Translations under genes and position numbers: made by a program
Origin: Acidimicrobiales bacterium
GTDB lineage: Bacteria > Actinomycetota > Acidimicrobiia > Acidimicrobiales > RAAP-2
Length of the DNA: 64,000 bases
Assembly (NCBI GenBank): GCA_035503015.1
Contig: DATJTU010000118.1
Span: 573 to 64,572, forward strand
Reading direction: 5' to 3'
The notes under the pieces: model-generated
Seen by the model: only the letters and a program-made list of their open reading frames with translations
Databases searched by the model: none
What the model was told of the DNA's origin: nothing
In this document: positions 8,574-46,465 of the stretch, piece by piece
Position numbering within the stretch: position 1 is the first letter of the stretch
Layout: each line of letters starts with the position of its first letter

Positions 8574-8672
8574 CGGGCGATGGTAACCAGGGGCCCGCCG
8601 GACAGGCCACGGGACCGGTGCCGGCGAGCGGTCCTGGTCACCGCCAGTTCACGCAGCCGTCACCGGCCCGCC

Positions 8673-9671: not shown

Positions 9672-9718
9672 GAGCGATTCGTCCTTTCGTGGTATCGAGA
9701 CAGGGTGCGGCTCGTGGA

Positions 9719-9739
9719 GCGGGTCCGGGCCGGGCCCGC
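9719..9739 (-). terminator. Candidate stem-loop downstream of icd
   Basis: gcgggtcc-gggcc-gggcccgc forms an 8-bp stem (one G-U pair) with a 5-nt loop, 13 nt past the icd stop. No U-tract follows. Confidence 0.3.
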
Positions 9740-9751
9740 CGGCGTGGTGCG

Positions 9752-10948
9752 TCAGAGGCGGTCGACGATGGCCGACGCGAACTCCGAGGTCTTGACCTCG
9801 GTCGCCCCGTCCATGAGCCGGGCGAAGTCGTAGGTGACGACCTTGTCCGCGATCGTCGCCTCCAGCGCGTGCACGATGTCGGACGCGGCGTCGTTCCAGC
9901 CGAGGTGCTCGTACATGAGGACGCCCGACAGCAGCACCGACCCGGGGTTGACCTTGTCCTGGCCGGCGTACTTGGGGGCGGTGCCGTGGGTCGCCTCGAA
10001 CACGCCGTGGCCGGTGACGAAGTTGATGTTGGCGCCAGGTGCGATGCCGATCCCGCCGACCTGGGCCGCCAATGCGTCGGAGAGGTAGTCCCCGTTGAGG
10101 TTCGTGGTGGCAATGACGTCGAAGTCGGATGGGCGCGTGAGGACCTGCTGCAACGTGATGTCGGCGATGGTGTCCTTCACCAGCAGCCTCTCGCCGGGGT
10201 CGCCGTCGCAGTCGTCCCACCCGACGGCGACGTCGGCGAATTCCTCGCGCACGAGCTCGTAGCCCCACTCGCGGAACGCGCCCTCGGTGAACTTCTGGAT
10301 GTTGCCCTTGTGCACCAGCGTGACGGAGCGGCGCTTGCGGTCGAGGGCGTACTGGATGGCGGCGCGGATGAGCCGCTTGGACCCCATGGGCGAGATCGGC
10401 TTGATCCCGATGCCCGAGGCCTCCCGGATCGGCCACCCCATCTCCTCGCGCAGGTACGTGGCCAGCTTCTCGGCCTCGGGCGTGCCCGACTGCACCTCGT
10501 AGCCGGCGTAGACGTCCTCGGTGTTCTCCCGGAAGATCACCATGTCGACGAGCTCGGGGTGGACCACGGGCGAGGGCACGCCGGTGAACCAGCGGACCGG
10601 GCGCAGGCACACGTAGAGGTCGAGGATCTGGCGCAACGCGACGTTGAGCGAGCGGATGCCGCCACCGACCGGCGTGGTGAGCGGCCCCTTGATCCCGATC
10701 AGGTGGCTGCGGAACGTCTCGACCGTCTCGTCGGGGAGCCAGCTCCCCGTCTCGTCAAAGGCCTTCTGCCCCGCCAGCACCTCCTTCCACGCCACGCGGT
10801 GGCCGTGCTTGGCCGCGGCGGCGTCGAGAACCAGCTTGGCGGCGGGCCAGATGTCGACCCCGGTGCCGTCACCCTCGATGAACGGGATGATCGGCTCGTC
10901 GGGGACGACGAGCGTGCCGTCGTCGCCCATGCGGATGAGCTCTGCCAT
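9752..10948 (-). CDS. icd: NADP-dependent isocitrate dehydrogenase (homodimeric type)
   Basis: 398 aa from the ATG at 10946-10948. Motifs seen: [57 protein letters not shown]. Confidence 0.95.
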
Positions 10949-29040: not shown

Positions 29041-29919
29041 TCACGTGGTGAGCGATGAGATCGGTGTCGCGTTCTTCGGCGCAATGGGATCCACCTTCTG
29101 GTTCCATTTGCCGTAGACCGCAGCAATCCGCTCGGTCGTCTCTCCCCGCGGCGTCTTGACCACCAGGGTCGAGCTCAGCGGAAGGTAGGGCGCTGCGGTC
29201 GAGACGAAGATCGTGGCAGTGCCGGTGTTGCCGGCCGCGACCGATCCGTCCGGGCTTCCTGCCACGGCCACCGCGTTCTTTCCCCCGATCGAGGTGATCC
29301 CGGCCACGTGCAGACCGGGGTCGTTGGGCACGAACTGCGCGATGGCCTGGGTGGGCGTCAGCGTGTCCACGACACCCTGGTAAGCGGCGTCTCCATCCTT
29401 CAGGGAGATCCACTTCCCGGCGTTCGCCGCCGCGACGCTCGCCGAGAGCTTGAATGCCTGCTCGAGCACCGCCGCTCCGGCGCGGACGTACGCCACATGG
29501 TCGACCAGGATGGCCTGGATCACTGGGCTCCCATTGGCCGTGACGTTCTCCGCAGCAGATCCGTCACGGCTCGAGGCACCTGACTCGATGGTCGTGGTCT
29601 TGCCCGACACGGTCTTCGTGACGAAGCTCACGGACCGCTGTGCATGGAAGGCGACGACGGAGCGGGACACGATCCCTGTCGCCGTCTTCCCCGCGAGTGC
29701 CCCTTCGGAGGGTCCAGAGGAACCGCACGCTGCGGCGGTCACCGCGAGCACAGCGATGACGGAGAGCCCCACAGCCGGGACCCGACGACGTGATTTCGAG
29801 GGTTTGATCGAGTGAATCTCTGTACTCCGAGGGCGAGGGGCCGGCTTCGACCGCCCAGCGCGGCCTAGGGACACGGCGACCTCACGGCTGTGCCCCCGTC
29901 GTCGTGGTGGAGCTGGCAC
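29041..29919 (-). CDS. Lipoprotein (lipobox LAVTAAAC), possibly a LolA/LprG-like fold
   Basis: KSRRRVPAVGLSVIAVLAVTAAACGSSG gives a basic n-region, an h-region and a Cys. The mature part is beta-rich. The start is uncertain (ATG 29919 overlaps the GH18 end, and an internal GTG is possible). The fold assignment is only an impression. Confidence 0.55.
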   Translation of the reverse strand: MPAPPRRRGHSREVAVSLGRAGRSKPAPRPRSTEIHSIKPSKSRRRVPAVGLSVIAVLAVTAAACGSSGPSEGALAGKTATGIVSRSVVAFHAQRSVSFVTKTVSGKTTTIESGASSRDGSAAENVTANGSPVIQAILVDHVAYVRAGAAVLEQAFKLSASVAAANAGKWISLKDGDAAYQGVVDTLTPTQAIAQFVPNDPGLHVAGITSIGGKNAVAVAGSPDGSVAAGNTGTATIFVSTAAPYLPLSSTLVVKTPRGETTERIAAVYGKWNQKVDPIAPKNATPISSLTT

Positions 29920-31648
29920 CGGTGTTCCCCGTTCCTCCCGTGGTGCTGGGCGTGGTCGTTGTCGACTGCTTCGGTCCTGAGGTCGTCGTCGCGATCGACG
30001 TCGATGTCGTGGTCGTGCGCTTCGGGGCGGTCGTGGGTGCCGCAGTCGTCGTGGTCGTCGTGGCCTTCGCTGCGCGGCTCTTGTGCTTGTGGGCGCCCGT
30101 CGTCGTGGTGGTCGTCACAGGCGATCCGGAGTTGCCCGCCTGCTGGAACCCGGGGACTTGGCTGGTGTTCCCTGGCGCGGACGGCCCCACTGGCGGCGTC
30201 CGCAACGGCGAGGTGCCGCCGTCGAGGGCAGCCAGTACGGAGTCGTCATTGCCCTCCATGCCCAACGCCCACGCGCCGACGCCGAGCAGCTGCGATCCCG
30301 TGGCCTGCTGGACCTTGGCTGCCAGCGTGTTGATGTTGTCGAAGAAGACCTGATGCCACTGGCCACCCGTTTGGTAGGACGTCCACGCCGTCTGCGTTGC
30401 TGCGTCCCAATAGGTGGGTCCGGATGCCATGGCCTGGGCGTAGGTCACTGCCTGCGACGGACCCGTCGCCGCGTCGCCGAGAGCGGGACCGGTGGTCGGT
30501 TCGTCGTAACCGAAGAGTGGCAGTCCGAGGATGACCTTGGAGGCGCCGGCTGCGGCTGTGTACTGGGCGATGTAGCTCGCGTCCGCGTCGCCGGCGTTCC
30601 CGTTGCCCTGGGCCGGGCCCACGTTCACGTCGTACGCCATGACGAAGAAGGCGTCGACCCACTTGCTGAGGCCGGCGATGTCGTAGAAGCCCGAGGAGTC
30701 GCCGGCTGACGAGGCGTAGGTCGCCATCGTGAGCTGGTAGTGCTGGTTGGTGGCGTGCAGCATGAAGTCGACCTGCGACACCAGGTTGTCGAGGCCCGCC
30801 TGATCACCGTCATCGGTCCCCTCGAGATCGAGGTTCACCCCGTCGAGGTTCTTCTCCTTCACGAGTTCGGTCAGCTGCTTGCCGAGTGTGACGCCTGCGT
30901 TGGGATCGTGGGTGAGCGCGTCGAGTGACGAGTTGGAGAAGTCGGTCGCGGTCAAGACCACTCGGTCGCCCGCCTGGTGCGCCGCGTTCACCAGGTTTGT
31001 GAGGTCCTGACTCTCGTATCCGTTCCAGCCTGGTCCCGACTCTTGGATCGAGCCGTCGGGGTTCACGTCGACGCTGAAGTACGCGATAGTCGAGAAGTCG
31101 GTGACCGGGAACTGTGATGCCTGCGGGAGCGACCAATACGGCACGTACCCGAACACTTCGTGCGCCGACGTCGGCGCGGCCTGTGCAACCTGCGGCGGCA
31201 CCGGATTCGGTGCCGACGACGCCGGCGCGAGGTGCAGGTTGCCATGGCCGTTGATGAAGCGGTCAGCTGTGGGGGTGGCCGACACCCGAACGTGTGCGGG
31301 AGGCGCGCCTCCGCTCGTCGCCATCGTCAAGCCAGCGGCCACGGTCGCACTCAGCACGACGAGGCTTCCCATGGCAATGGCAACCTTGCGCGGCGACACT
31401 CGCTCGCGCTTGATGACGGGGGCTTCGGACTGTCGATCGGCCTGCTGCTCTAGATCGCGGTAGGACGAGACCGAAGCCAACACGTCACCCGCGCTGGCCG
31501 CGGGCCCTGCCCCCTGTGGGTTCGGGTCGGTGTAGATCGCAGTCAGTGAGATGGACTCGAGCAGATTGACGGTGTCAGGCGCGACCGCGTCGGCGGCCTG
31601 CTTCTTCGCGAACGGCCCTCGCCGCCCCGTCTCTCGCCGTCTCCGCAT
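29882..31648 (-). CDS. Membrane-anchored glycoside hydrolase family 18 domain protein with a Thr-rich tail
   Basis: N-terminal TM VAIAMGSLVVLSATVAAGL. GH18 barrel blocks FGYVPYWS and LDGVNLDLEG (a DxxDxDxE variant with Asn at the second Asp), then FFVMAYD and VGAWALGME. The C-terminal ~80 aa are Thr-rich. Confidence 0.8.
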   Translation of the reverse strand: MRRRRETGRRGPFAKKQAADAVAPDTVNLLESISLTAIYTDPNPQGAGPAASAGDVLASVSSYRDLEQQADRQSEAPVIKRERVSPRKVAIAMGSLVVLSATVAAGLTMATSGGAPPAHVRVSATPTADRFINGHGNLHLAPASSAPNPVPPQVAQAAPTSAHEVFGYVPYWSLPQASQFPVTDFSTIAYFSVDVNPDGSIQESGPGWNGYESQDLTNLVNAAHQAGDRVVLTATDFSNSSLDALTHDPNAGVTLGKQLTELVKEKNLDGVNLDLEGTDDGDQAGLDNLVSQVDFMLHATNQHYQLTMATYASSAGDSSGFYDIAGLSKWVDAFFVMAYDVNVGPAQGNGNAGDADASYIAQYTAAAGASKVILGLPLFGYDEPTTGPALGDAATGPSQAVTYAQAMASGPTYWDAATQTAWTSYQTGGQWHQVFFDNINTLAAKVQQATGSQLLGVGAWALGMEGNDDSVLAALDGGTSPLRTPPVGPSAPGNTSQVPGFQQAGNSGSPVTTTTTTGAHKHKSRAAKATTTTTTAAPTTAPKRTTTTSTSIATTTSGPKQSTTTTPSTTGGTGNTGASSTTTTGAQP

Positions 31649-31840
31649 CGTCTGCGTGCCCTCCGTCTGGCACTGCCGCGCCGGTGTGACGCTCCGGGCG
31701 GACGCACCCCTGCGCCCGAGCCCGCGGCAGGAGGAATCCCGCCGCGGGTGAGGGCTTGTGCGCGGGCAGAGGCTAGGTCGAAGAGGTGAACCGAGTGCAA
31801 CATCGGCGTAACACCCAGATGAACACTGGGAAGCGCCTGG

Positions 31841-32713
31841 TCAGCTCGGATCAGCGCCGTTCACGTGCAGGCGGGCGATCGCCTCGTCGAGCTCGGAGAG
31901 CAAGGCCGTGAAGGCGGCGTCGTCGATGTCCAGTGGCGTCCGGACCGCCCGTGCCGCCGTGCCAAGCACGCGCGCACCGTGGACGTCGCCGGACGCAGCC
32001 GCGAGGAGCGCGAGCATCAGCACGGCCATGATTGCGCCGCCTTGCGTGGTCCCAGTGCGATCGTGATCGGGAATGCGGGAGAAGGCCTCCATCGCCCGCT
32101 GGGCGCTCTCCACGGCTTCTCCGGCACGGCCCTGCCGGAACCGCAAGAGCGCCTCCGTGGTCTCCACGTAGGGACTGCCGGGGGCGACGCCCCGAGCCAA
32201 GGCGACGTGACGTTCTGCGTCGGCGAGCACGAAGGGATCGTCCAGCCGGGACCTATGCCCGAGGTCACCGTGCACGAGGAGGCACCAGGCGCGGGCGTTG
32301 GCCAACATCGCCCGCTCTTCGGTCGAGAGATCCTGCCGTGGATCTCCCGTCGGGGTTACCTCGAGCGCTTTACGGGCCAGGCCCATGCCGTCGATGCGTT
32401 GGTAGGAGCTCGTGCCGAGCATCAGCATGGACGCCAACGAGACATCGCGGCGCGCTGCCTCGCTTTGCTCACTGAGCTCCGAAGGCCCGAACCAGTCCTC
32501 TTCGGGCGCCGGCACGACGGCTGACCACGTCGACTCGCCCGCTCCGCTGTCCGGCGCCTGCGCGCCCGCCTGCGTCGACCGGTCTTCCGACGTTTCGGAA
32601 TGGCCGGCGCCGCTGAGCGACTGGGTCGTTCCGTCTAGTTCCGGTACGTCCTCGCTGGAGTCGGTTGTCAGTTCGGGCGAGTCGCGCCGGCGCCGCCGCA
32701 CGTGCTTTGCCAC
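31841..32713 (-). CDS. Hypothetical protein (acidic disordered N-terminus, helical-repeat C-terminus)
   Basis: 290-aa ORF with protein-like composition. No family recognised. Confidence 0.45.
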   Translation of the reverse strand: MAKHVRRRRRDSPELTTDSSEDVPELDGTTQSLSGAGHSETSEDRSTQAGAQAPDSGAGESTWSAVVPAPEEDWFGPSELSEQSEAARRDVSLASMLMLGTSSYQRIDGMGLARKALEVTPTGDPRQDLSTEERAMLANARAWCLLVHGDLGHRSRLDDPFVLADAERHVALARGVAPGSPYVETTEALLRFRQGRAGEAVESAQRAMEAFSRIPDHDRTGTTQGGAIMAVLMLALLAAASGDVHGARVLGTAARAVRTPLDIDDAAFTALLSELDEAIARLHVNGADPS

Positions 32714-32935: not shown

Positions 32936-34864
32936 CTACTGGCCCTGCGGGCTGCCGTCCGTGGTCTCGGTGATGCAGTAACCAACCGGCGCCGTCGGGC
33001 TGGCCGTGACGGTGCTGAGGGTGGCGCTGTCATCCTCGGCCTGGTACGAGCCGCTGATCGCCGAGTTGTCGGTGTCGAGGTGGTCAGCCGAGAAGTTCCA
33101 CGGCGAGCCGCTCTCGTTGGCAGCGTTGTACTTGGAGGTGCTCAGCCCGTCGTTCCACGCCGGGTGCGGAATGCCGGTCGCTGTCGAGTTGTAGCCGGGG
33201 ACCGAGGTGTCGGTCTGGCCGTCCTCGACCTGCAGGTTCGGCAGCGGGAAGAAGCCCTGGTTCGTGATCGCCGTGTCGATCTCCGCCCGGTAGGTCAACC
33301 CGGTGTTCGGGTCGATCTCGGTGTTGGTCGCAGGCTTGCACATGAACCCGTCCTCACTGACGACGTTCAGGGCCGCAGGCGCGCTCGCCGGCAGGTTCGG
33401 GTTGTTGCCGTTCGAGTACACGTTGTACAGGAGGCGGTCACCCGGGAACTGGCTCCCCGTCAGGCCAGGCAGCTGCGAGTTGATGCTGGCCTGGTTGACG
33501 CTGACTCCGTTCCACGCCGTGCCGAGCTGGACTGCGTTCGGGACCGACGCGTTGGTCGAGGTGCCAGCGCAGAGCGGCAGCGTCGAGTTCTGCGTCGTGG
33601 TGTTCGGCGTGCACTCCTTCTGGTACTTCCCGTAGGAGAAGAAGAAGATCGCGTCGCCCACCGGAGCGCCGTGACCCGCGCCAGTGCCGTTGTTCCCGAG
33701 AATCGAGGAGGTCTCGTTCTCGAAGATGATCTGCTTGGCCGGCCAGTTGGAAGCGCTGGTCGGGAAGCTGGCCCCGGTCGCGCTCGCCCACGTGGACTCG
33801 GTACCCGAGCCGTTCTGCGCCCAGTAGGCGTAGATCGGCGTGTTCGGGCAGCTCGCGTCACTCGGGTCGAGGCTGTTCCAGGTCACGCTCGGCGTGCCGC
33901 TGCTGTAGGTCTCGTTCCAGATGCTCTTCAGCATGGCCGTCGTGATGTTGTTAGCCCCGATCGACGAGATGCACTTGTTGGCGTCGGTGTTCAAGCCGTT
34001 GTACTTCGTCCAGTAGAGGTAGCTCACCGCGTCCTCGGCGTAGGCGACGAAGTTCAAGCCCTGGTAGTCCCCACCGCTCTTGATGCTCGGTGCGCGAGAC
34101 GAACGAGCGACGTCGAGCGGCGAGACGTTCACCGGGCCAACGCCCGACGGGTCGTCGATGCCGTTCGAGTGGCCGACCGTGGTCGCGTTGCCGGTGCCCT
34201 CGAGCTCGTCGATGCCGTTGCCCGAGCCGTAGGAGGGCTCCTCAACGAGCACGTCGTTGAACGGGTTCTGCTGTCCCCACGTGAGGAAGCCGTTCTCACC
34301 CTGCTGGGGGTTGTAGTCGACTGTCAGCGTGTCACCCGTGGCGCTGCCCGTGGCGGCGATGCCGACCTTGAGCTTGCCCGTGGCGGCACCGAACGTCTTG
34401 ACCACGTCACCGGCCGGGATCACGCCGGCGCTGTCGGTGATCAGGGCGCCAGGGCCGATGTTGGTGTTTCCAGCGAGGCTGGACGCCACGAACTTCTTCG
34501 AACCGGCCGTGATGTTGGCGGTGGCCGTGACGGTCAGCCCTGCCGGCTGTGCCGCACCCTGCTCACCGTTGAGGCCCGGGCACCCGTAGTCGAGCGGCTG
34601 AGCGTTCGGCGAAGCCTGGCCGGCGAGGTCACAACCAGGGGACTGGTTGAAGATGTCCGACTCGGCCTGCATCAACAGGTACGCGGTGTTCGAGCCGCCC
34701 TGAACCACGAGGTAGTTCTGGGCGTTCGCGTTGTCCGCGTTCCCGTTGTTGACGTTCTGGGCGGCGAGGGCAGGACTGGCGAACCCGATCGCCAGCGCCG
34801 ACGCGCCCACCAGTGTGGCGCCGATCCGCAAAGAGCGGTGGCGCCCCAACAGCCTTTTCAGCAT
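32936..34864 (-). CDS. Secreted, highly divergent PstS-fold (PBP_like_2-type) substrate-binding-like protein
   Basis: Signal peptide ...GASALAIGFASPALAA. Degenerate PstS blocks QGGSNTAYLL, AQNGSGTESTWAS, GDAIFFFSYGKY, FPGDRLLYNVY and NQGFFPLP. A GGAG RBS precedes the ATG (aaggagacccatcaacATG). Confidence 0.6.
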   Translation of the reverse strand: MLKRLLGRHRSLRIGATLVGASALAIGFASPALAAQNVNNGNADNANAQNYLVVQGGSNTAYLLMQAESDIFNQSPGCDLAGQASPNAQPLDYGCPGLNGEQGAAQPAGLTVTATANITAGSKKFVASSLAGNTNIGPGALITDSAGVIPAGDVVKTFGAATGKLKVGIAATGSATGDTLTVDYNPQQGENGFLTWGQQNPFNDVLVEEPSYGSGNGIDELEGTGNATTVGHSNGIDDPSGVGPVNVSPLDVARSSRAPSIKSGGDYQGLNFVAYAEDAVSYLYWTKYNGLNTDANKCISSIGANNITTAMLKSIWNETYSSGTPSVTWNSLDPSDASCPNTPIYAYWAQNGSGTESTWASATGASFPTSASNWPAKQIIFENETSSILGNNGTGAGHGAPVGDAIFFFSYGKYQKECTPNTTTQNSTLPLCAGTSTNASVPNAVQLGTAWNGVSVNQASINSQLPGLTGSQFPGDRLLYNVYSNGNNPNLPASAPAALNVVSEDGFMCKPATNTEIDPNTGLTYRAEIDTAITNQGFFPLPNLQVEDGQTDTSVPGYNSTATGIPHPAWNDGLSTSKYNAANESGSPWNFSADHLDTDNSAISGSYQAEDDSATLSTVTASPTAPVGYCITETTDGSPQGQ

Positions 34865-35046
34865 GTTGATGGGTCTCCTTGTTGTCAGTTGTTCTCGGTC
34901 CGGCGCTCGCCGACCCGGCAGTCAAAGGGCTCCGCAGTACCACGCCTGATCCCTTCGCCGCCGCGCACCTTAGAAAACCCGAGTTAACGTTCCGTGAACG
35001 CAGTGCACACCCACAAAGAAATGTTCGTGTCTGTTTTCACATCACG

Positions 35047-35101
35047 ACCGGACGGTTACCGGGTGAATCTTCCGCGTCACTTCCGCGAACGATTGATGAA
35101 C
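35047..35101 (-). promoter_or_regulatory. Five consecutive 11-nt units (PHO-box-like periodicity)
   Basis: The minus strand reads GTTCATCAATC GTTCGCGGAAG TGACGCGGAAG ATTCACCCGGT AACCGTCCGGT. The units lie just after the lipoprotein stop (35105) and about 180-240 nt upstream of the ATG at 34864. Confidence 0.35.
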
Positions 35102-35104
35102 CGG

Positions 35105-35701
35105 TCAGGTTCCTCCGGAATTGCCCCCGAGACCCGGACCGCCGCCCGTCGGGTTCACGAAGACCTTGGCCACGAACCCCGAGGGTTCAAGGGTGTACGA
35201 CACCGGGCCGCCGTTGGGAGGGGTCCAGGTGAACGTGCCGCCGGGAGGGATCGTCCCCGAGTCGACGGGGTAGAACTTGAAGTCGTCGAAGATGATCCGC
35301 TGCGGGCTCTTGGTGAGGTTGTACCAGACCACAGGCGTCCCCCCGCTGGACTGGAGCTCCTGCGGGAAGACTCGCCCTGCCTTGATGATGATGTTCTGCC
35401 CCGGATTGAGGCCGGGCTGAATGGTCTGGCCCTGCTCATTCGGGAGGGTCGTGGTGGGGTCGGCCGCACCGATCGAGCCCGTGCCGTAACTCACTCGCAT
35501 CGGTGCGTTGGTTGCGGACTGGCCCTTGGGTTGTGCGCCCACGAGCTTGTCCGACGACGTCGTGGTGGACGACTGCTGGCTCGATCCTGCGCCGGCACCC
35601 CCGCCGCATGCGGCCAACCCCAAGGCAGGAAGGGACAGCATCAGCACGGTGCCGAAGAGCGTGGCGGCGCGTCGGCGCCGAAAACCCAGATGAAGCCGCA
35701 T
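35105..35701 (-). CDS. Lipoprotein (lipobox LGLAAC), beta-sandwich/cupredoxin-like impression
   Basis: The ATG at 35699-35701 gives MRLHLGFRRRRAATLFGTVLMLSLPALGLAACGGG. The mature part includes IIIKAGRVFPQEL...VVWYNLTKSPQRIIFDD...IPPGGTFTWT. No obvious Cu ligands. Confidence 0.55.
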   Translation of the reverse strand: MRLHLGFRRRRAATLFGTVLMLSLPALGLAACGGGAGAGSSQQSSTTTSSDKLVGAQPKGQSATNAPMRVSYGTGSIGAADPTTTLPNEQGQTIQPGLNPGQNIIIKAGRVFPQELQSSGGTPVVWYNLTKSPQRIIFDDFKFYPVDSGTIPPGGTFTWTPPNGGPVSYTLEPSGFVAKVFVNPTGGGPGLGGNSGGT

Positions 35702-35720
35702 TACACCGACACTCCTCACG

Positions 35721-36752
35721 TCACACCGTGGCGGGCAAGAACCCGATGATGCTCTCGCAGGTGAACAGTGCGACGAGGAGCAGCACCGGCACGGCGAGAA
35801 CGTACACCACGACCGGCTGATCCCAATGTCGGAGCAACCACGCGGCAACGCTGAGAAGCGCGAAGAACAAGAGGCACCAGAATACGGCGAGGAGGCCTGA
35901 CGCCGAATCCCCCGTCAGCCCGAGCTCGGCTTGGTCCGCATGGAACTTCGGCTTCGTGGTGCCGGGGAGCGGCTTGCCATCGAGGGTGGCCAACACTGCG
36001 AGCCTGCCCTGCGGGAAGATCCCCGACGCCGCTGTCACCAGCGTCAGGCGGTTGGCCTTTGTCTGCGTCACGACGTCGTGGCGGCCACCGTGCGCGTAGA
36101 CGACTCTCGTCACCGTGTAGCTGTAGGTGCCGAATCCATCCACCACCTTGATCAGCTGCCCCTTCTTGAGCGATCCGATTCCGCCGAAAGGCGCCCCGAA
36201 TGTCGCGCGGCGTCCTGCAATTACGGCGTTCCCGGGTTGCCCCGGCATCGACGTCGTCGGCATGTGTCCCGGTCCGCTCCGCAGGTCCTGGGCATCACTG
36301 CCCTCGACGACGGCGTCCACGACGTGGAGCGAGGGAATCTCGAGAATCGCGACGGGACTGCCCTCGGTTGGCGTTTTTCCCTGCGCGAGCTCGTACGTCT
36401 TGGCTGGGTTGGCCGAGATCTGTTGCAAGAGGTTGTGCTGCGCTCGTGCGGCGGTGAGGGGTGTGAACAAATAGATGTAGGCAAGCAGGAGAATGATCAA
36501 TACGCCCAGGCCGAAGATAAGAGGCCCGGCCACGCGTGGCCGCAACACCACGGCCAAGCCAGCGCCGACCCAGCCGGCAACGCGGTCGTACAGCACGCGA
36601 AGCTTCGTCGGCTCCTGACCCCGGACCTCTTGCCCGAGGACGTCCGATACGTTCGGGGGCACCGGCCCTTGGGGGTGCTCCGCGCCATCTGACATGTGCT
36701 CCGTGCCGGCCGACACCTCCTCGGCCTGGTCCAAGAAGGTGAGGCCCTCCAT
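35721..36752 (-). CDS. Sortase (class E-like) homologue lacking the catalytic His and Cys
   Basis: N-terminal TM, then the sortase-fold blocks VAILEIPSL, LRSGPGHMPTTSMPGQPGNAVIAGRRATFGAPF (canonical AGHR) and NRLTLVTAASG (canonical TLxTC). The Arg in QGRLAVLA is retained. There are extra C-terminal TM helices. The ATG shares one nt with the upstream TGA. Confidence 0.75.
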   Translation of the reverse strand: MEGLTFLDQAEEVSAGTEHMSDGAEHPQGPVPPNVSDVLGQEVRGQEPTKLRVLYDRVAGWVGAGLAVVLRPRVAGPLIFGLGVLIILLLAYIYLFTPLTAARAQHNLLQQISANPAKTYELAQGKTPTEGSPVAILEIPSLHVVDAVVEGSDAQDLRSGPGHMPTTSMPGQPGNAVIAGRRATFGAPFGGIGSLKKGQLIKVVDGFGTYSYTVTRVVYAHGGRHDVVTQTKANRLTLVTAASGIFPQGRLAVLATLDGKPLPGTTKPKFHADQAELGLTGDSASGLLAVFWCLLFFALLSVAAWLLRHWDQPVVVYVLAVPVLLLVALFTCESIIGFLPATV

Positions 36753-39481
36753 CAGCCCTCCTCCGGCGGCCCTGGGCCGCTCGGGCTGCCGATGTCCTCA
36801 CCGTCTCCTGCAGCGCGTGGTCTTCGCAGGCCCGGATACATGTAAAGCAACGGTCCGCCGAGCAGGCACAACAAGGCAAGGATCAACAGAGTGGGCACGA
36901 AGTACCGGTTGTCGCCCACGGTGACCGTGATGAAGTGCCCGATGAAGCCACCGCCTGACGAGCCGTTGCCGGAACTGGCTGCGGTCCCGGCGGGTGTGGA
37001 GGCGCCAGGCGACGAGCCATGGCCGCTTCCACCTCTGGAGCTGGCCGACGTGCTGCCGCCGTGCGCTCCGGCCGCTGCCGCGTTCGTCGTTGCGCCCGCG
37101 CCACCGCCCGTGCTCGCGTTCGTCGACGACCCAGAGCCGCTGCCCGAACCGCCCGACCCGGAACCGCTCGACCCAGTGATGTCGGTGGCGATCTCGGTCA
37201 TCGCCTGGTTGTACAAGCTGTCGGGTAGAGCGACGTATCCGGCGGGGAGCGGCGACGAGCTGGTCCCGTCGTCGTGCGAGTAATTGACCAAGTTCGTCAG
37301 GAGGTTCTTCAACTCGGTGGCCTGGGTGGCGGAAGACTGCGGATTCGTCGAGACGAGCGCGTACGTGACCATGGGCAAGGGATACGCAGCCGGGTCACCC
37401 GTGTCGTCGTAGTTCGGCGTGATGGTGCCGTCAGGGTTGGCCTTGGCGTCGTTGATGGCGGCAGTGATGCCTGACGCGCTCGGGGCGACGAAGGCTCCAG
37501 CGGCGTTCTGGAGGCTGGCGGGAAGCAGCCCGTAGAAGTCGGCCTCCGAGCTGTCCATGGCGCTGAACGCGAACCCGCCGCTCCCGCCGTACGAGGCCAC
37601 CGCCTTCTGCATGATGCCCGTCGCGCTGAGAGGCTGGCTCGAGGGCTGATAGTTGTATTGGTTGGCACCTGCCTTGTCGGCCATGTCGATCGGGAAGGCC
37701 GACACCCCTTGGCATTTGCTCGCGGGGTACGACACGTTGTGAAGGACCAAACCTGGCTCGTTGCCGTCGGGGTTCTTGTTCTTTCTCGTCTTTCCTGCGA
37801 CCGGGTCTTGCTCCGCGTTGGTAAGCAGCTGCTGACCGCTCAGGATATCGGTCACGTTCGCTGTGCCGCCGTAGGGAAGGGTGACGGGATACGCAGTGTT
37901 GGGCGCGTCGCACATCCACGACGTGCTCTCGAAGGTCGCGCCGCTTCCCGTCGAGGGCCACATCGCCGCGAGAGTCTCTTCGTTCACGGGACTGCCGCCT
38001 CGCTGGAACGGCCACGGGTTCAAGAGCGCGAAGCCCGTGTCGCCGAAGTAGAGCTGCTGTGGGGGTGTGGCGCCACCAGTTTCGCCGATGTACTCGTTTC
38101 CGGGATCGTTTGCGAAGTTGCCGAGATAATTGAACTGGGTGAAAGAGAGGCGCTTCGACTCGATGAGCGCCGCTGGTTGAGACACGTCGACGTTGGCGGT
38201 CTTTCCCTTCGAGGTCTCCACCAGCCACGATTTCCCCTGGTTGGTCGTCGTCTCTGTGCACGAGCTTCCCGAAATCTCGTTGCAGACGTCGTCGTTCGGC
38301 CTGCCGAGCCCGGCAACGGCACTGGTCCAGGTTTGAGTCATGATGCCCGCTGCCTGCGCGGGTGTGAGCTGGTATGAGTCCAATGGGTAGGTGATCGCGT
38401 TCGAACCGAGCGTGATGCCGGCTGCGCCATCAAAGGCGATCTCGGTCGCCGACACAGCGATCGGGATGTACGCGACCTTCCCGCCTGCGGCCTTTTCCTC
38501 GGCCAACGTCCCCGGGTCCTCCGGGTCGTCGGTGAAGGTCACGGGCACCGAGCCGTTGATGACGTTGTAGATAGGGCAGTTCGTTCCCCCACCGGTCGCG
38601 CAACCCGAATCGTCAGTCGAGTTGAGCTCGGTCGGCAATGCAGCGACGCCGTTCGGTCCGTTGCAGGTGGCCTGTCCCGCGGCGGGGATGAACTGGGTGG
38701 CGCTGTAGGAGGCCGTCACGTTCATGACGGGAGCGTTCGCGCATCCGTTTCCGCCCGAGCTGAATGTCAACGGGAAGATAACGGTGTGGCCGATGGGAGA
38801 GTACGGATTCGTCCCATTGGAACTGTTCGGAGGTAGACCCGCCCCCAAGAGGTCGTTGATGTCCGCGCTCGGAATGTCCATGACCTCGACACCGCACGGA
38901 TTCGGTCCGTTGTCACAGAAGAAGGAGCTGGTCTGGTTCGTGGGAGGAAGCAGGAGCTGGTCGCTCGTCTGGGAGATGATCGGATTCGTGCCGGAAACGG
39001 TTGGATCAGCGAACTCTGACGGGATCGCCATGATGGTCTGGTTCGACGTCACCGTCCCGTACTCGTACTGCTCCGGTTCGGCGGTGGGTGTCTGCCCCGG
39101 TTGGGGTACCGAGGAGGCGCACTGTGGCTCGTTGAGGACCTGTGTGCCGGTGCCCTTGAGCGAGCAATACGCGACTTCCAGCTCGTCCCCGACTGGGACG
39201 CCGCTGACGTCGACGTACACCGCCTGATTGAGCCCTACGTTCGTGACGGGACCCGCATCCGCCGTGAACGGCGTGGTGACCTGCTCGCAACTTGCGGTCT
39301 CAGGCGGGCAGGACGACGAGTCGTGCGGCGTCACGATTTGCGTGCCCTGGGGCATCACCAGTTTCGCCTTGCGAGCCACCGCAGCCCCGCCGTGCCCCGA
39401 GGTGAGGACGAGGAGGGTGAGGCACGCAACCACCAGCGCTGCGGTCAACCGCAGGACGCGCCCGGAGCGGGTCAGAGCCAT
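36752..39481 (-). CDS. 909-aa secreted PstS-fold giant with a Gly/Ser linker and a C-terminal TM anchor
   Basis: ATG at 39479-39481 (MALTRSGRVLRLTAALVVACLTLLVL). Degenerate PstS blocks KVAYIPIAVSATEIAF, MWPSTGSGATFESTSW, GGFAFSAMD, AAYPLPMVTYALVS and LPAGYVALPDSL. A GSSGSGSGGSGSGSGSS linker precedes the TM LLILALLCLLGGPLLYMY. Confidence 0.65.
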   Translation of the reverse strand: MALTRSGRVLRLTAALVVACLTLLVLTSGHGGAAVARKAKLVMPQGTQIVTPHDSSSCPPETASCEQVTTPFTADAGPVTNVGLNQAVYVDVSGVPVGDELEVAYCSLKGTGTQVLNEPQCASSVPQPGQTPTAEPEQYEYGTVTSNQTIMAIPSEFADPTVSGTNPIISQTSDQLLLPPTNQTSSFFCDNGPNPCGVEVMDIPSADINDLLGAGLPPNSSNGTNPYSPIGHTVIFPLTFSSGGNGCANAPVMNVTASYSATQFIPAAGQATCNGPNGVAALPTELNSTDDSGCATGGGTNCPIYNVINGSVPVTFTDDPEDPGTLAEEKAAGGKVAYIPIAVSATEIAFDGAAGITLGSNAITYPLDSYQLTPAQAAGIMTQTWTSAVAGLGRPNDDVCNEISGSSCTETTTNQGKSWLVETSKGKTANVDVSQPAALIESKRLSFTQFNYLGNFANDPGNEYIGETGGATPPQQLYFGDTGFALLNPWPFQRGGSPVNEETLAAMWPSTGSGATFESTSWMCDAPNTAYPVTLPYGGTANVTDILSGQQLLTNAEQDPVAGKTRKNKNPDGNEPGLVLHNVSYPASKCQGVSAFPIDMADKAGANQYNYQPSSQPLSATGIMQKAVASYGGSGGFAFSAMDSSEADFYGLLPASLQNAAGAFVAPSASGITAAINDAKANPDGTITPNYDDTGDPAAYPLPMVTYALVSTNPQSSATQATELKNLLTNLVNYSHDDGTSSSPLPAGYVALPDSLYNQAMTEIATDITGSSGSGSGGSGSGSGSSTNASTGGGAGATTNAAAAGAHGGSTSASSRGGSGHGSSPGASTPAGTAASSGNGSSGGGFIGHFITVTVGDNRYFVPTLLILALLCLLGGPLLYMYPGLRRPRAAGDGEDIGSPSGPGPPEEG

Positions 39482-39482
39482 C

Positions 39483-41159
39483 TCACGTGGCTCCCGTCTC
39501 GCTGCCTCGCTCGCGCCGGCGCCTCGTCGTGACCCACAGGACGAGCGGGACTCCGATGATGACGAGGGCGAACACGGTCGACCACAGGGCAACCTGCGCC
39601 GGCGACCACTTGGAGAGCGCGCCGGCGGACGCATTCGTCAGTCCGCTTTGGCGGGCAAGGGCCTGCTGCGCGTTGTTCAAGGGGTTGAGCGCCTTCTTCA
39701 ACTGAGCGGCGGCAGCGGCCGCAGACGCGGCGCTCGTGGCGCCGGCCGTGGTGGTCGAGGTCCCGGTCCCTCCCTTGGACGTGCTCCCGCCGACGGCCGT
39801 CGTCGCGTGGGCGGCTCCAACGGCAGCAACCGCCGCGCCGGCACCGGTCAGGTCGCTGCCCGGATTCGTGGTGCCGACCACCGTGGGGCCGCCGACGGGT
39901 TGGAGCGCGCCAGTGATGTACGGATTTGCGCACGTCGAAGGAGTCGGAGGGGGAGGCGACGTGCCGCCCGGGAGCCGGCCCGCCGCCTGGAAATCGTCCT
40001 CGACGAGGTTCGGAGGTATCGGTGAGTAACCCAAACTCGCCATTTGGCTCTGGCCCCCGCACGCGACATAGGAGATGAACTGGGACAGCTCGGATCCCTG
40101 CCCCGAGCCCATCGTGACTGGGCCGCCGCTGTCGCACGCGAAGTTCTGCGCTGCGGCCTGCGACGGCACGCACTGCGCGATGAAGTAGCTGTAGGCCGAG
40201 ATCGGATACGCGTCCGGGTTGGGGTTGGTGTAGACGCCACCGAGGTTCTGGGTCAGGTCGGAATAGAGGATCGCCGCCGTCAGCGCGACCGCGACGTTGT
40301 ACGAGTCCGGCTGCACGGGCTGGCCGGCGGCGTTGATCACCGATGCGACGGGAAGATGGACGTTCTTCGCGTATGCGTACTCGACGTAGGCGATCCCGCC
40401 TTGGTTCTGCGCCGGGCCTTGCGAGGCCGCGTCGGAACCGTTGACGCCCTCGAGACTGTTCAAGTTCTGCGGGACGCCGTTACTGAACGACGCCCAGGTG
40501 GCGGACGGCGTGCCGGGGGTGGTGGGCACCGATGCTTCTTGCTGAAACGTGGTGATCGGGCCCGGGTCCACGTGCAAGAAGTAGTCGGAGAGGAGATAGT
40601 TCTCGCCGGACGCGTCACTGCGGTAGTAGGCCGTGATCGGCTGGTTCGGCATCGGAATGTTGGGGTTCAGGGCCTGGATCTGCGGGTTGTTCCAGTTCTT
40701 GATCGAGCCGGTGAAGATCCCGAGCAACGTCGGGCCATTCAGGATCAGGTTGGTGACCCGCTGCCCGTTGGCGGCCTGGAGGTTGTACTCGAAGGCCAGG
40801 CCGCCGGCGACGTCGGGCATGTACTGGAACGGGTAGGGCACCTGCGAGGTGGAGCAAATCGACTGCTGGGTCGCGTAGGAGATGTCCGTCGCCCCGAAGT
40901 CGACCGTCTTTTGGCAGAACGCGTTCATGCCGAGGATCGAACTGGACACGGTGAAGTTGATGTCGCCGCCGTATTCCTCGTTGAACTGGCCTTCCCACTG
41001 GGTGATGGCGACACCGGCGAAGCTCGACCCCGTGGAGATGAGCTGGGGGTTCGAGGCGCCCGCCGGATCGGGCGTTGAGCCCAGTTGGCCGGCGATGCCG
41101 ATGACACCCGTCAGCGTCACGGCGACCCAGAGCAGGGCGGCAAGTGGGCGTCGCGTCAT
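39483..41159 (-). CDS. pstS: Phosphate-binding protein PstS family with a C-terminal extension and TM anchor
   Basis: Blocks [60 protein letters not shown] and LGYSPIPP. The ATG overlaps the pstB stop (ATGA). The tail is [20 protein letters not shown] plus RRRRER. Confidence 0.8.
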
Positions 41160-42031
41160 CCGAACCTCCCGTGTACGTAGTCAGCGGTCCGCGGATCTGT
41201 GGGATTGGAGAACATCATCTCGGTAGGCCCGGACTCGACGACGTGCCCCGGTTGACCCTCGGCCGCGAGGAAGAAAGCGCACATGTCGGAAACCCGCTGG
41301 GCCTGTTGCATGTTGTGGGTCACGATGATCACGGTGACCTCGTGGGCGATCTCGCGGATGGTCTCCTCGATCCGGTTGGTCGACGTGGGGTCCAAGGCTG
41401 AGCAGGGCTCGTCCATGAGGAGCACCCTCGGACGCACCGCCAGGGCGCGCGCGATGCAGAGCCGTTGCTGCTGACCACCGGACAGCGAGCCACCCAACTC
41501 GTTCAGGCGCTCCTTGACTTCGTTCCACAGGCCGGCCTTGGTGAGCATCTCCTCGACGAGCAAGCGTCGGTCATGCGAGCTGAGCTTGATGCGCGAGAAC
41601 TTCAGACCGGCCAGCACGTTCTCCTCGATGGTCATGGCGGGGAACGGGTTGGGCTTCTGGAACACCATGCCGATGTGCTTGCGGCTCTCGGTTGCGCGCA
41701 GGCCGCCCCCGTAGATGTCGACGCCGTCCAGCTCGACCCGGCCCGCCAGCTGGGCTCCGGGAACGAGCTCGTGCATCCGGTTGAGGATCCGCAGGTAGGT
41801 GGACTTGCCGCACCCCGATGGGCCGATCAACGCCGTCACCTCGTTCGGCTCCATGGTCAACGAGACCATTTCGAGGACGAGGCGGCCACTGAACCAGGCG
41901 CAGACCCCGTATGTCTCGAGCTTCGCCGGCTGGACGATCGGCGTCGCTACCGTCGAGGGCTGAGCAACGGTCGGCACCTCGGCGGTCGGTGCTTCGCCCG
42001 GCCTCGAGCGCTCGCGTGAGAAGACCTTCAT
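41156..42031 (-). CDS. pstB: Phosphate ABC transporter ATP-binding protein
   Basis: 291 aa from the ATG at 42029-42031. Blocks [65 protein letters not shown] and ADYVHGRFG. Confidence 0.95.
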
Positions 42032-43278
42032 TCGCTCACCATCTGCTTCACCCAGTGGAACGGCGCGACGACGATCCGACGCAACCGGCCCTTCTTGGTC
42101 GAACGCCGTCCGAGCAACCGTGCCACCACGAACAGGATCAGCACGAGCACCAGGAGGACGAAGGCGGCGGTGAACGCGACCTGCTGCACCACGGCCTGGG
42201 CCTGGAAGATGTTCTGGTACAGGACGAGCGGCAGAGCGCCTTGCGGACCGTGGAAGACGTTGGCGTTCAAGGTGTTGGCGCCGAAGGCGGTAAAGATCAG
42301 CGGGGCCGTCTCCCCGGCGGCGATGGCGACACCGAGCACGACAGCGGTGACGAGCCCCGAGCGGGCAGTCGGGAGGACGACCTGGCGCACAGTCCGCCAC
42401 TCGGACGCCCCCAGCGCGAGCGACGCTTCTCGGAGCCCACCGGGGACCACGCGCAGCACCTCCTCGGTCGTCCTCGTCACCGAGGGAAGCATGAGGACGA
42501 ACAGCGCCATCGCCGCGGCGAATCCGGAGTAGCCGAGAGTGTGGGGCACGATGAAAATCGCGTAGATGAACACGCCGGCGACGATCGAGGGAACGCCGCT
42601 CATCGCCGTCACGATGGTGCGGACGAACCGCGTCCCAAACCCCCCGACCTCGTTGAGGAAGACGGCGGTCAGGAACGCCAGCGGGACGGCCATGGCGGCC
42701 GCCAATCCGACCTGCTCCAGGGTTCCCACGATCGCGTGGCCGACTCCCACCTGGTTGAACAGTGAGGTGCCTTCGGCCGGCTGGTAGTCCGCCAAGGTCC
42801 GCCACAAGAACCCGATCGTGAAGTGGGCGACGCCTCGGATGAACACCCAGATGACGATGTAGAGCAAGGCTCCGATGACAACCGCCGCGCATGACCCCAC
42901 GACAGTCGTGATCACACGGTCGGTAGCAGCGGAACGATCGACGACCTGGTTGGTGACCACCCAGAAGACGGCGAGGAAGCAGGCATACCAGCAGAGCCCG
43001 AAGCCGAAAGCACCCGACAACAAGGTCAGTTGGTAGAAGAGAATCCACACGACCGCGAACGAGGACACGGCGGAACCGACCAAGAGTGCAACGCCCTGCG
43101 CTCCGAAGTCTCGCGTTCGCCGCGGCGGCGCCAGGGGTGCCACCCGCCGGACGTCGCCGGTCAGGACGGCGTGGCTCAGCGTGCCGTCGAGCCCTCCTGT
43201 TGCACGGGCTGCCGCACCATTTCCGTTCGCCGCAGTGGGCGCCTCGAGGAGATCGCGTACGTCGAGGGGGCTGGTCAC
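42028..43278 (-). CDS. pstA: Phosphate ABC transporter permease PstA
   Basis: GTG at 43276-43278 overlaps the pstC stop (GTGA). EAA-loop region [22 protein letters not shown]. Six TM helices plus an N-terminal extension. Confidence 0.9.
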
Positions 43279-44270
43279 AGCTCCACCCCCTTCCCGCTTC
43301 GGGAACGGTTGACGATCAGGGAGGCGATCAGGTTGACGATGAGGGTGAACGTGAACAGCACGAACCCGAGCATCAGCAAGTCGTCCGTGCCGAGCTTTCC
43401 GCCTGCACCGAATTCGGCCGCGATGAACGAGGCGACCGTCGTCCCGCCGTGCTCGAGGATGTGCGGCGAGATCACGAAGTCCAGGCCGAGAAGCACGTAG
43501 ACGGCGATCGTCTCGCCCAACGCCCGGCCGAGGCCCAGCATCGACGCGCCGATGATGCCGCCCCGACCGAACGGAAGGACCACCGTGCGGATCATCTGCG
43601 ACTTGGTGGCACCGAGCGCGAGCGCCCCTTCGCGCTCTCCGGGCGGCGCCAGACTGAACACCTCGCGAGACACCGAGGCCACGATGGGCACGATCATCAG
43701 CCCGACGATGAGTCCCGCGATGAAGAAGGAGCCGTTGAAGGGGGGTGTCGAGGCCGAAAAGAGTGGGATGAAGGAGAGATGGCGCACCATCCACGAGGTC
43801 GTCCCGGTGATCTCCGGTTGGAACTGGTGTAACGCCCAAAGGCCGAAGATGATGCTCGGGATGGCGGCGCCGAGGTCGACCATCGCGATGAGTGCCCGCT
43901 TCGCCTGGATCGGCGCGTACTCGTTGATGAACAGCGCGGTTCCGATTGCGACCGGGACTCCGAAAATGACCGCAACCAGTGACGTGACGATGGTGCCGTA
44001 CATCTGTGCCAGCGCACCGAAGTGATAGGGCTTGTGGAGGGTCGAGTATCCCGACGTGGTGAAGTAGCGAAAGCCCATCGCCCGCAGAGCGGGAAGGCCG
44101 CGCCAGAGCAAGAAGAAGCCGATCAGGAAGAGGATGGCGAATGCGGTGAACCCCGCCGCTCTCGCCACCGCACGGAAGATCCGGTCTTCCTTCGATCGGT
44201 CATTGGGGACCGTGATGGGTCGCGGCACGGCGTGGCCCACAGCGGGGGACGCAAGGGTGTCGGTGGACAT
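43275..44270 (-). CDS. pstC: Phosphate ABC transporter permease PstC
   Basis: 331 aa. EAA-loop [22 protein letters not shown], followed by [11 protein letters not shown]. Confidence 0.9.
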
Positions 44271-44308: not shown

Positions 44309-44372
44309 TACCGGGATCAAGCTACCGGCCGGAGATTACCGGACCCTGTCGTGGAGGTGAACGCCCGGTAAC
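44309..44372 (-). promoter_or_regulatory. Periodic TACCGG repeats upstream of pstC
   Basis: TACCGG occurs at 44309, 44323 and 44337 (exact 14-nt spacing), with an inverted copy CCGGTA at 44365 (28 nt further on). The site lies 39-100 nt upstream of the pstC ATG (44270). The 9-mer CCCGGTAAC at 44364-44372 recurs as its reverse complement GTTACCGGG at 35055-35063. Confidence 0.35.
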
Positions 44373-44459
44373 ACTTGGCTGCGCCGTTGCTGCGATGTGC
44401 TCGGCGAGTTTGCTTCCGTCTCGTCCGGGTCATTTCGCCTGGGCGTGGACGGAACACAC

Positions 44460-46277: not shown

Positions 46278-46465
46278 GTGGAATCCTCCCTCAAATTCCT
46301 CCCGAGCACGACCGCGTTCGTGCCTCGGACAACGCCTGATACGTCCGCCTGACTCGCCATCTTGGGCCCGCCGCACGGAGGGCCATGACCGCCGGGTACC
46401 ACTATGGAGGCTGCAGCGCGCGCCCGGCGGGATTGGGTCTGAGTTCTTCTCTAGTTCACAAAGAT

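Follow-up and report, generated by a model that had tools for sequence, protein, structure and literature searches.

A sortase-fold protein lacking the catalytic histidine and cysteine is encoded among pst phosphate importer genes of an Acidimicrobiales bacterium

The gene discussed here lies in a window of 64,000 nucleotides, by which we mean the whole stretch of DNA that was analysed (Acidimicrobiales bacterium, assembly GCA_035503015.1, contig DATJTU010000118.1, positions 573 to 64,572). It occupies positions 35721-36752 on the minus strand and encodes a sortase-fold protein of 343 amino acids (aa), referred to below as the pseudo-sortase, in which the catalytic histidine and cysteine are replaced. 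The open reading frame (ORF) is intact, its third-position GC is high like that of real genes in the window (G+C 65-73%), and its product is identical to NCBI entry HTU37574.1 (= P0001), which carries the annotation 'sortase [Acidimicrobiales bacterium]'. The gene belongs to a minus-strand series in the order pstC-pstA-pstB-PstS1-Big-pseudo-sortase-lipoprotein, followed after a gap of 240 nt by PstS3, and all junctions from pstC to the pseudo-sortase gene are start/stop overlaps or gaps of 1 nt. Sortases are textbook cysteine transpeptidases, and we know of no naturally Cys-less, selectively maintained sortase family that has been described.

AGRR of the pseudo-sortase aligns with AGHR of solved sortases, and LTLVT-A aligns with LTLTT-C (5go5) and TIVT-C (4d70), in single-sequence and profile alignments alike; both further place GRLAV on HRLIV of S. 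avermitilis SrtE (5go5). Arg181 (CGC; 36210-36212, minus strand) thus stands at the position of the catalytic His of 5go5, 5go6, 5uus and 4d70, Ala241 (GCG; 36030-36032, minus strand) at that of the catalytic Cys of 4d70 and 5go5, and Arg250 (36003-36005, minus strand) at that of the Arg in HRLIV, the β8 Arg that forms the third residue of the triad. Because the two kinds of alignment agree, these assignments are positionally sound. Hence, of the features that define the enzyme, the Cys of TLxTC and the His of AGHR are missing and the β8 Arg is present. Nine residues separate the Cys position from the Arg, as do Cys320 and Arg329 in SrtE1 (PMC5148588). Furthermore, the Tyr that follows GPGH in class E sortases and is associated with their specificity is replaced by Met164 (36261-36263, minus strand; GPGH-Y to GPGH-M). 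The corresponding Tyr229 of SrtE1, in the β3/β4 loop, has been proposed to favour LAXTG signals (PMC5148588). Most Cys-less relatives of the pseudo-sortase have L, M, V or F at this position, and Tyr is found in five relatives that keep both the catalytic His and Cys.

The sortase domain is devoid of Cys, the sole cysteines of the protein being C293 in membrane helix 2 and C332 in membrane helix 3, and it contains four His (H143, H163, H221 and H225). None of the four qualifies as a stand-in catalytic His, H163 being the His of GPGH that is common to active sortases and the other three being unconserved. Cys332, part of the motif 'LFACES', was considered as a stand-in nucleophile. It is at least 90% conserved in Acidimicrobiales, but Phe takes its place in 92 of 131 representatives of the family (near-full-length proteins out of the best 150 matches of a profile search); because its conservation is confined to Acidimicrobiales, it is not a general substitute nucleophile. 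An initial annotation, made from the sequence alone, had reported the Arg in AGRR, the Ala in LTLVTAAS, the kept Arg in QGRLAV and the lack of Cys in the catalytic domain, and had concluded that the protein cannot act as a transpeptidase. The alignments uphold these readings. With Ala at the nucleophile site, Arg at the position of the general acid/base and no conserved His or Cys from elsewhere in the chain to occupy the active site, the loss of canonical cysteine transpeptidase activity is as well supported as sequence and structure model allow. The motifs around the dead site are near-invariant (G160-P161-G162, P170-G171, G174, R182, G186, T237-L238 and T240), and those lining the groove (GPG, PGxxGN, TLVT and the β8 Arg) are retained.

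The fold is that of a sortase. Pfam Sortase (PF04203) matches aa 137-256 (E 1.1e-19; 70.9 bits, cutoff 26.6), and the best NCBIfam class is class_E_sortase (NF033747) with 87.9 bits, which is under its cutoff of 160 bits. An AlphaFold2 model built on 69 homologues (pLDDT 80.7, pTM 0.70) comprises a helix (aa 72-114), a β-barrel (aa 133-258) and two further helices (aa 283-309 and 313-338). Its top structural match in Foldseek is C. perfringens SrtD (4d70_A; TM-score 0.85, rmsd 2.5 Å); it also superposes on class E, C and A sortases at probability 1.0, and more than 130 sortase chains match at E<=1e-3. Pfam and the model thus assign to the pseudo-sortase the eight-stranded β-barrel that characterizes the sortase superfamily, and they bear out the similarity to class E-type sortases that the initial annotation had recognized from motifs (ILEIPSL, GPGHMPTTSMPGQPGNAVIAGRRATFGAPF, LTLVTAASG and QGRLAV, all located in the protein). 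Membrane helix 1 (about aa 75-100; 36453-36530, minus strand), detected in a hydropathy scan and as a helix of the model, is preceded by a poorly conserved cytoplasmic N-terminus and runs on as a long stalk helix to aa 114. The extracytoplasmic barrel (aa 128-258; 35979-36371, minus strand) is delimited by Pfam, Foldseek and the model strands at aa 133-258. After a linker with a conserved ELGLxGD motif follow membrane helix 2 (aa 283-309; 35826-35906, minus strand), supported by model and hydropathy, and membrane helix 3 (aa 313-338; 35739-35816, minus strand), which holds Pro322, Cys332 and Glu333.

The best sequence matches of the pseudo-sortase are class E sortases (S. coelicolor SrtE1 5cuw, S. 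avermitilis SrtE 5go5/5go6, C. diphtheriae SrtF 5uus, T. fusca SrtE 9iok, among others). They have in common with it a cytoplasmic extension, membrane helix 1, a linker helix and the barrel, as well as GPGH, PGQxGN, AG(H)R.T(Y/F)GxPF, TLxT(C) and the nine-residue spacing from Cys to Arg. The pseudo-sortase differs in the replaced His, Cys and Tyr, in its score below the class cutoff and in its place in a pst operon with no LAXTG substrates nearby. Moreover, it carries two extra C-terminal membrane helices and an LPATx end, whereas SrtE1 ends with the catalytic domain. Since it lacks the Cys, the His and the Tyr and falls short of the class E cutoff, it ought to be classified neither as a transpeptidase nor as a member of class E. 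In the closest structure, the compact barrel of C. perfringens SrtD (4d70), the residue after the GH motif is likewise not Tyr; this residue, Phe92, has been linked to a preference for LPXTG over LAXTG (PMC5148588). Class D sortases, however, are active Cys/His enzymes without C-terminal helices or pst context. Five relatives (P0218, P0245, P0258, P0261 and P0262) share with the pseudo-sortase the three-helix architecture and the FEN..RLLP motif of helix 3, and their chains likewise stop one residue past the fourth tail position. These proteins keep the His, the Cys and the Tyr of GPGHY, and have LPxN or LPAS tails in place of LPxT. Judged by sequence and model, the pseudo-sortase is a catalytically dead descendant of such a three-helix class E-like sortase.

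The substitutions are shared by a large family. Of the 120 closest homologues (42-100% identity), 117 have Arg and 2 have Lys at the His position, 92 have Ala and 27 have Ser at the Cys position, and 106 keep the third Arg. The profile search, which covered 1.84 billion cluster representatives, returned 1,189 matches at E<=1e-30 and 7,326 at E<=1e-10, and the best 150 matches comprise at least about 125 clusters at 50% identity. In the 131 representatives drawn from these, the Cys site holds Ser (99), Ala (19), Cys (5), Gly (4) or Thr (4), the His site mostly Arg (94), His (26) or Lys (6), and the β8 Arg is kept in 106. A sequencing error in, or recent inactivation of, an ordinary class E sortase could be suspected because the source is a metagenome-assembled genome and related long-read assemblies show many frameshifts. 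However, the ORF is intact with strongly conserved motifs, the change from Cys to Ala at position 241 requires two nucleotide changes, and hundreds of homologues (31-75% identity), which come from independent samples and represent at least two phyla, share these substitutions. Family-wide conservation therefore excludes an artefact or decaying pseudogene, whose probability we put close to nil; the 120 closest homologues in themselves dispose of the sequencing error against which the initial annotation had cautioned.

The five His/Cys members served as root for a crude neighbour-joining tree, in which the Cys-less proteins form a single clade apart from them and changes from Ser to Ala, Gly or Thr and from His to Arg or Lys recur. 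On this tree, Ser was probably the ancestral state at the Cys site. The sequences thereby extend the initial annotation, which had described a single protein: the whole family is Cys-less, with Ser rather than Ala as the commonest replacement, and the class E Tyr is lost as well. In Cys-less members, the nucleophile position is limited to small residues (S, A, G, T), which, together with the near-invariant motifs around it, is easier to reconcile with a constraint on size or on binding than with chemistry that was retained. The opposite reading is that the family members are still enzymes, which would use a Ser or Thr nucleophile with Arg/Lys or His as base to attach the PstS proteins encoded next to them or to process these; the window protein would be a variant relying on a hydroxyl close by, for example that of Thr240 or Ser243. 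The Ser in 99 representatives and 27 close homologues, the 26 representatives with His and 6 with Lys, and the oxyanion-binding Arg kept in 106 would all suit such an enzyme, as would Ser243, which is at least 90% conserved within the Acidimicrobiales clade. Yet position 243 is Pro in 72% of the wider family, the clade of the window protein has mostly Ala at the nucleophile site (92 of 120), Ala, Gly and Thr arise repeatedly in an unchanged context, and the inspected neighbours lack LPXTG/LAXTG in the window and in distant loci. Furthermore, Cys-to-Ser mutants of sortase A are essentially inactive. Residual serine catalysis is conceivable for relatives that combine Ser with His. It is unlikely in the window protein because of the Ala at the site and the lack of a cleavage motif in the neighbours, and we regard a non-canonical enzyme as an improbable explanation altogether.

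Relatives occur in 205 species according to a scan of one genome per species. Most are soil Acidimicrobiales/Acidimicrobiaceae metagenome-assembled genomes, and other carriers are labelled Dormiibacterota, Nanopelagicales, Micrococcales, Frankiales and Streptosporangiaceae. Cultured carriers are Planotetraspora phitsanulokensis (WP_204073417.1) and Spongiactinospora sp. 9N601, both of which have His/Thr variants. No curated NCBIfam or Pfam model was found that singles out the Cys-less family. Its members are named 'sortase', 'sortase A' or 'class E sortase' in public databases, and these names over-predict the capacity of carrier genomes for cell-wall anchoring.

The strongest functional evidence is synteny. 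All four loci retrieved by exact look-ups have a pst context, and the order of eight genes is identical in loci at 61%, 47% and 42% identity. Among 80 genome loci, essentially each one with enough flanking sequence has pstC, pstA, (pstB) and PstS beside the gene. The linkage spans Acidimicrobiales, other Actinomycetota and Dormiibacterota, with a shuffled arrangement in the divergent Actinomycetota and Dormiibacterota loci, and extends to other sub-clades (His/Ser P0221, Ser/Ser P0249 and His/Thr P0255 from Planotetraspora). In loci L001, L002, L089 and L091, too, the gene overlaps the tail-anchored gene upstream of it, by 4 nt in the last two, which are among the three loci from other sub-clades. 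No pst genes stand beside the two His/Cys relatives that have informative flanks. As the Cys-less members are linked to pst and these two relatives are not, loss of the Cys and recruitment to pst coincide. The pseudo-sortase gene is co-located and co-oriented with pstC, pstA, pstB and PstS-family genes, as an accessory component of the importer should be. The initial annotation had asked whether such variants always neighbour PstS-fold genes; this association is near-universal, but the partner system is the PstCAB phosphate importer and not merely the PstS-fold genes. We consider it very likely that the pseudo-sortase is a dead enzyme kept under selection and functionally tied to Pst.

The operon, all on the minus strand, begins with a pstC-like permease (43275-44270), followed by a pstA-like permease of 416 aa (42028-43278) and a pstB-like ABC ATPase (41156-42031) that has ATGA overlaps with both adjoining genes. 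The next gene encodes PstS1 (39483-41159), a phosphate-binding protein of the PstS family (TIGR00975, 176.8 bits; PBP_like_2, 94.7 bits) with a signal peptide, a linker of low complexity (Ala/Gly/Ser/Thr) and, at the C-terminus, a membrane helix and then RRRR; it has no lipobox. The N-terminus of its signal peptide shows a possible twin-arginine motif. 'Big' (36752-39481; 909 aa from the ATG at 39481) is a second tail-anchored PstS paralogue and is composed of a signal peptide, a Cys-rich N-terminal extension, a PstS-like domain with insertions, a Gly/Ser linker, a C-terminal membrane helix and a basic tail. Its relationship to PstS1 emerges from profile comparison (Big 287-947 against PstS1 25-556; hhalign probability 99.7, E 7e-26). 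The TGA of Big shares 1 nt with the ATG of the pseudo-sortase gene, ahead of which lies the ribosome-binding site GGAGGAGG. A small lipoprotein of about 198 aa with the lipobox LAAC (35105-35701) starts 19 nt downstream of the pseudo-sortase gene and is kept across Acidimicrobiales loci. Its match to NCBIfam 'lipo-invert' (22 bits, cutoff 37) falls in the signal peptide and low-complexity region and was rejected as compositional. Last comes PstS3 (32936-34864), a secreted protein of 642 aa with a signal peptide and no anchor, which appears to have its own promoter region. Some PstS3 homologues score as PBP_like_2, and the profile comparison of PstS3 with PstS1 is not significant (probability 3%); compared by sequence with solved structures, Big and PstS3 gave low-complexity noise only.

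The mode of anchoring separates these binding proteins. Across related loci, a C-terminal membrane helix is present in 62 of 68 PstS1 homologues and 60 of 62 Big homologues, and in none of 59 PstS3 homologues. Like PstS1, Big is devoid of a lipobox. The inspected C-termini of the neighbours contain no LPXTG/LAXTG motif, either in the window or in distant loci. Furthermore, no ORF of the 64-kb window ends in LPXTG/LAXTG plus hydrophobic segment and basic tail, and no second, canonical sortase was found in the window. The tail-anchored PstS paralogues also bear a Cys-containing N-terminal domain, which scores as Neocarzinostatin-family (Ig-like) in P0179, P0264-P0266 and L086 (1892-3871). The pstA-like permease measures 389-427 aa in related loci, with about 190 residues ahead of its BPD_transp_1 domain, and a typical PstA has about 300 aa; the extra N-terminal part could be a docking site.

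The operon may also be under Pho control. We counted the pattern GTTCACC-N4-GTTCACC with up to 3 mismatches within 320 nt upstream of genes, a consensus reportedly due to Sola-Landa et al. On the minus strand, the PHO-box-like tandem repeat TGTTACCgggcGTTCACC (44356-44373; 3 mismatches) lies about 85 nt upstream of pstC, and two more (34982-34999 and 35084-35101; 3 mismatches each) lie in the intergenic region upstream of PstS3. The pattern recurs upstream of pstC in 47 of 65 related loci and upstream of PstS3 in 37 of 70, against a background of 0.055 per 320 nt. Judging from these repeats, the operon is probably Pho-regulated, which we treat as a lead and no more. In Streptomyces, PhoP sites consist of two 11-bp direct repeats upstream of pstS, and PstS, under this PhoP/PHO-box control, is a lipoprotein (PMC2605767). 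The present operon thus resembles the canonical actinobacterial PstSCAB system in having pstC, pstA, pstB, a PstS-family protein and PHO-box-like repeats upstream. It differs in the order pstCAB then PstS, in carrying the pseudo-sortase, and in its binding proteins, which have been duplicated and enlarged and use a C-terminal helix as anchor where the canonical PstS has a lipid.

How might a dead sortase serve such an importer? The pseudo-sortase would act through binding rather than catalysis and would be made in step with the two PstS paralogues, which a C-terminal helix and basic tail would hold in place of the lipid anchor usual in Actinomycetota. The anchor of these partners could be seen as a cell-wall sorting signal minus LPXTG, in which the hydrophobic segment and basic tail were kept and the cleavage motif was lost. 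In the simplest reading, an enzyme-substrate pair would have turned into a receptor-client pair. With its membrane helices and retained peptide-binding groove, the pseudo-sortase might then form a membrane-proximal adaptor that organises the tail-anchored phosphate-binding proteins at the PstCA translocator. The initial annotation had suggested a receptor, chaperone or scaffold for the adjacent tail-anchored proteins. Its receptor/scaffold role is plausible and has strong circumstantial support in the synteny, the start/stop overlap and the C-terminal anchors; as a mechanism, we advance the adaptor or scaffold tentatively and think it somewhat less probable than an even bet. The iRhoms offer a parallel, since these inactive rhomboids lost their catalytic residues and are kept under selection as binding and trafficking partners of single-pass membrane proteins. 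The likeness is one of concept and by analogy only, as fold, domain of life and clients are unrelated. Much the same facts would suit a biogenesis factor that, in the manner of a sortase, captures the hydrophobic segment and basic tail of newly exported PstS1 and Big, holds or orients them for insertion or folding and releases them. In its favour, the groove motifs are kept, the start of the gene overlaps the stop codon of its partner, and PstS1 and Big retain two parts of a sorting signal, the hydrophobic one and the basic one. On present data such a factor is indistinguishable from a scaffold. However, without LPXTG the partners offer no known handle for the groove, for which the LPATx tail of the protein itself would compete, and we rate transient assistance of this kind as rather unlikely.

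That tail is among the most conserved parts of the protein. The pseudo-sortase terminates in LPATV followed by the stop codon (35724-35738, minus strand), which resembles an LPXT sorting motif. Nearly all intact members end in LP[A/S/G]T plus one hydrophobic residue, with LPATV (57), LPATL (27) and LPATF (16) at the terminus of the 120 close homologues. The few members without a normal C-terminus are explained by apparent assembly frameshifts in 'MFD' metagenome-assembled loci (L006, L007, L011, L013, L016, L018-L020 and others), where genes are split into several reading-frame pieces. Among the 131 representatives, P340 is conserved in 130 (99%), L339 in 117 (89%) and T342 in 110 (84%), and in helix 3, P322 is invariant (131 of 131), E/D333 is found in 96 (73%) and C332 in 16. 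Except for C332, these values for tail and helix 3 match or exceed those of the triad positions. According to the positive-inside rule and the model, the tail is predicted to lie at the outer face of the membrane, the side on which membrane-bound sortases encounter the LPXTG motif of their substrates. The conserved LPATx is a candidate built-in ligand and may be a pseudo-substrate. It could fill the groove that was once the active site, either in cis or between adjacent copies, with its terminal carboxylate facing a cluster of Arg181, Arg182 and Arg250, and the recurrent change from His to Arg or Lys could serve to bind this carboxylate. Class C (pilus) sortases, which carry a C-terminal membrane helix, provide an analogy: their substrate groove is occupied by a lid, a piece of the enzyme's own chain that acts as a pseudo-substrate, and the lid-mutant structures 3rbj and 6bwe are among the fold matches of the model. 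That lid, however, is an N-terminal loop on active enzymes, whereas the candidate of the pseudo-sortase is a C-terminal LPXT-like tail whose docking is hypothetical. We look upon a tail docked in the former groove as less likely than not. The fullest version of the idea, a dedicated importer subunit of soil Actinomycetota that docks C-terminally anchored PstS proteins (former sortase substrates without LPXTG) with its own LPXT tail locked in the dead active site, appears doubtful to the same degree.

The arginines allow another interpretation, in which Arg181, Arg182 and Arg250 form an anion pocket for phosphate or for an envelope ligand that is phosphorylated, for example lipid II or undecaprenyl pyrophosphate. 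In that case the protein would be a sensor or regulator of the Pst transporter (PhoU-like or envelope-coupling) and not a scaffold. The change from His to Arg or Lys is recurrent and directional, and three Arg occupy triad positions or adjoin them. The linkage to Pst is strict, and phoU did not appear among the genes called at the cluster loci. In addition, a PASTA domain directly precedes the sortase barrel in P0228 and P0235, and PASTA domains bind peptidoglycan or lipid II. Only Arg181 is new, however, because ordinary sortases already possess the counterparts of Arg182 (in AGHR) and Arg250 (the β8 Arg). Furthermore, 26 of the 131 representatives keep the His, the ligand is conjectural, and PASTA fusions, present in 2 of the 9 long members that were checked, are rare. 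An anion pocket thus has a low probability in our estimate, and the sensor or regulator built on it is to be judged equally sceptically. P0196 has an N-terminal family-2 glycosyltransferase (GT2) domain; the PASTA and GT2 domains hint at a link to peptidoglycan or envelope glycans.

Taken as a whole, mechanism included, the statement that the pseudo-sortase is a non-catalytic, sortase-derived adaptor or accessory subunit of a Pho-regulated phosphate importer has, in our view, a probability just short of one half. Several points weigh against it. What we propose as mechanism derives from gene context, the sequence and a model of the monomer. Any placement of the tail in the groove hinges on the last three residues of the model, whose pLDDT is only about 57, and the tail may serve something unrelated to the groove. 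It is also older than the loss of catalysis, since the active-looking His/Cys relatives share the helices and an LPxN/LPxS tail. Because most members have Ser at the nucleophile site and 26 of 131 keep the His, the ancestral function of the clade might still have been enzymatic. Finally, P0179 (980 aa; locus L062, about 7763-10777) combines Neocarzinostatin-like, PBP_like_2 and Arg/Ser pseudo-sortase parts in one ORF, but it is a singleton from a long-read metagenome-assembled genome and possibly an assembly artefact. A dedicated search found no second PstS-sortase fusion. P0179 may be a true fusion or result from a lost stop codon in the long-read assembly, and is weak evidence for a partnership.

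The family represents a widespread branch of the sortases that is non-catalytic; its architecture is new, and so is its consistent partnership in the genome. The open-access literature searched yielded no description of a pseudo-sortase or inactive sortase, of a link between sortases and Pst, or of tail-anchored PstS. Strict linkage to a pstCAB cluster preceded by PHO-box-like repeats joins two previously unlinked fields, surface-protein sorting and phosphate acquisition, and offers a natural case in which an enzyme-substrate pair has possibly evolved into a non-covalent receptor-client pair. If the fullest version of the idea is true, the protein would be the first functional pseudo-sortase, and bacteria that lack an outer membrane would have a new means of tethering and organising their substrate-binding proteins. 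How sortases recognize their signals at the membrane surface may moreover become clearer from the conserved LPXT-like terminus. As cultured carriers exist in Planotetraspora phitsanulokensis and Spongiactinospora sp. 9N601, the idea is directly testable.

Other features of the locus concern its surroundings. A scan for sigma-70 promoters and terminators was uninformative at this high GC. Directly upstream of pstC (about 44460-46300, minus strand) lies the gene of a large secreted protein with Big_3_5 Ig-like repeats, as is likewise the case in L001 and L009. Downstream of the cluster, genes at 29882-32713 (minus strand) encode a TPR-like protein and one that resembles GH18 chitinases, the latter with a long tail rich in Thr; this pair is absent from more distant loci and kept in the closest Acidimicrobiaceae relatives (L001, L005-L020).

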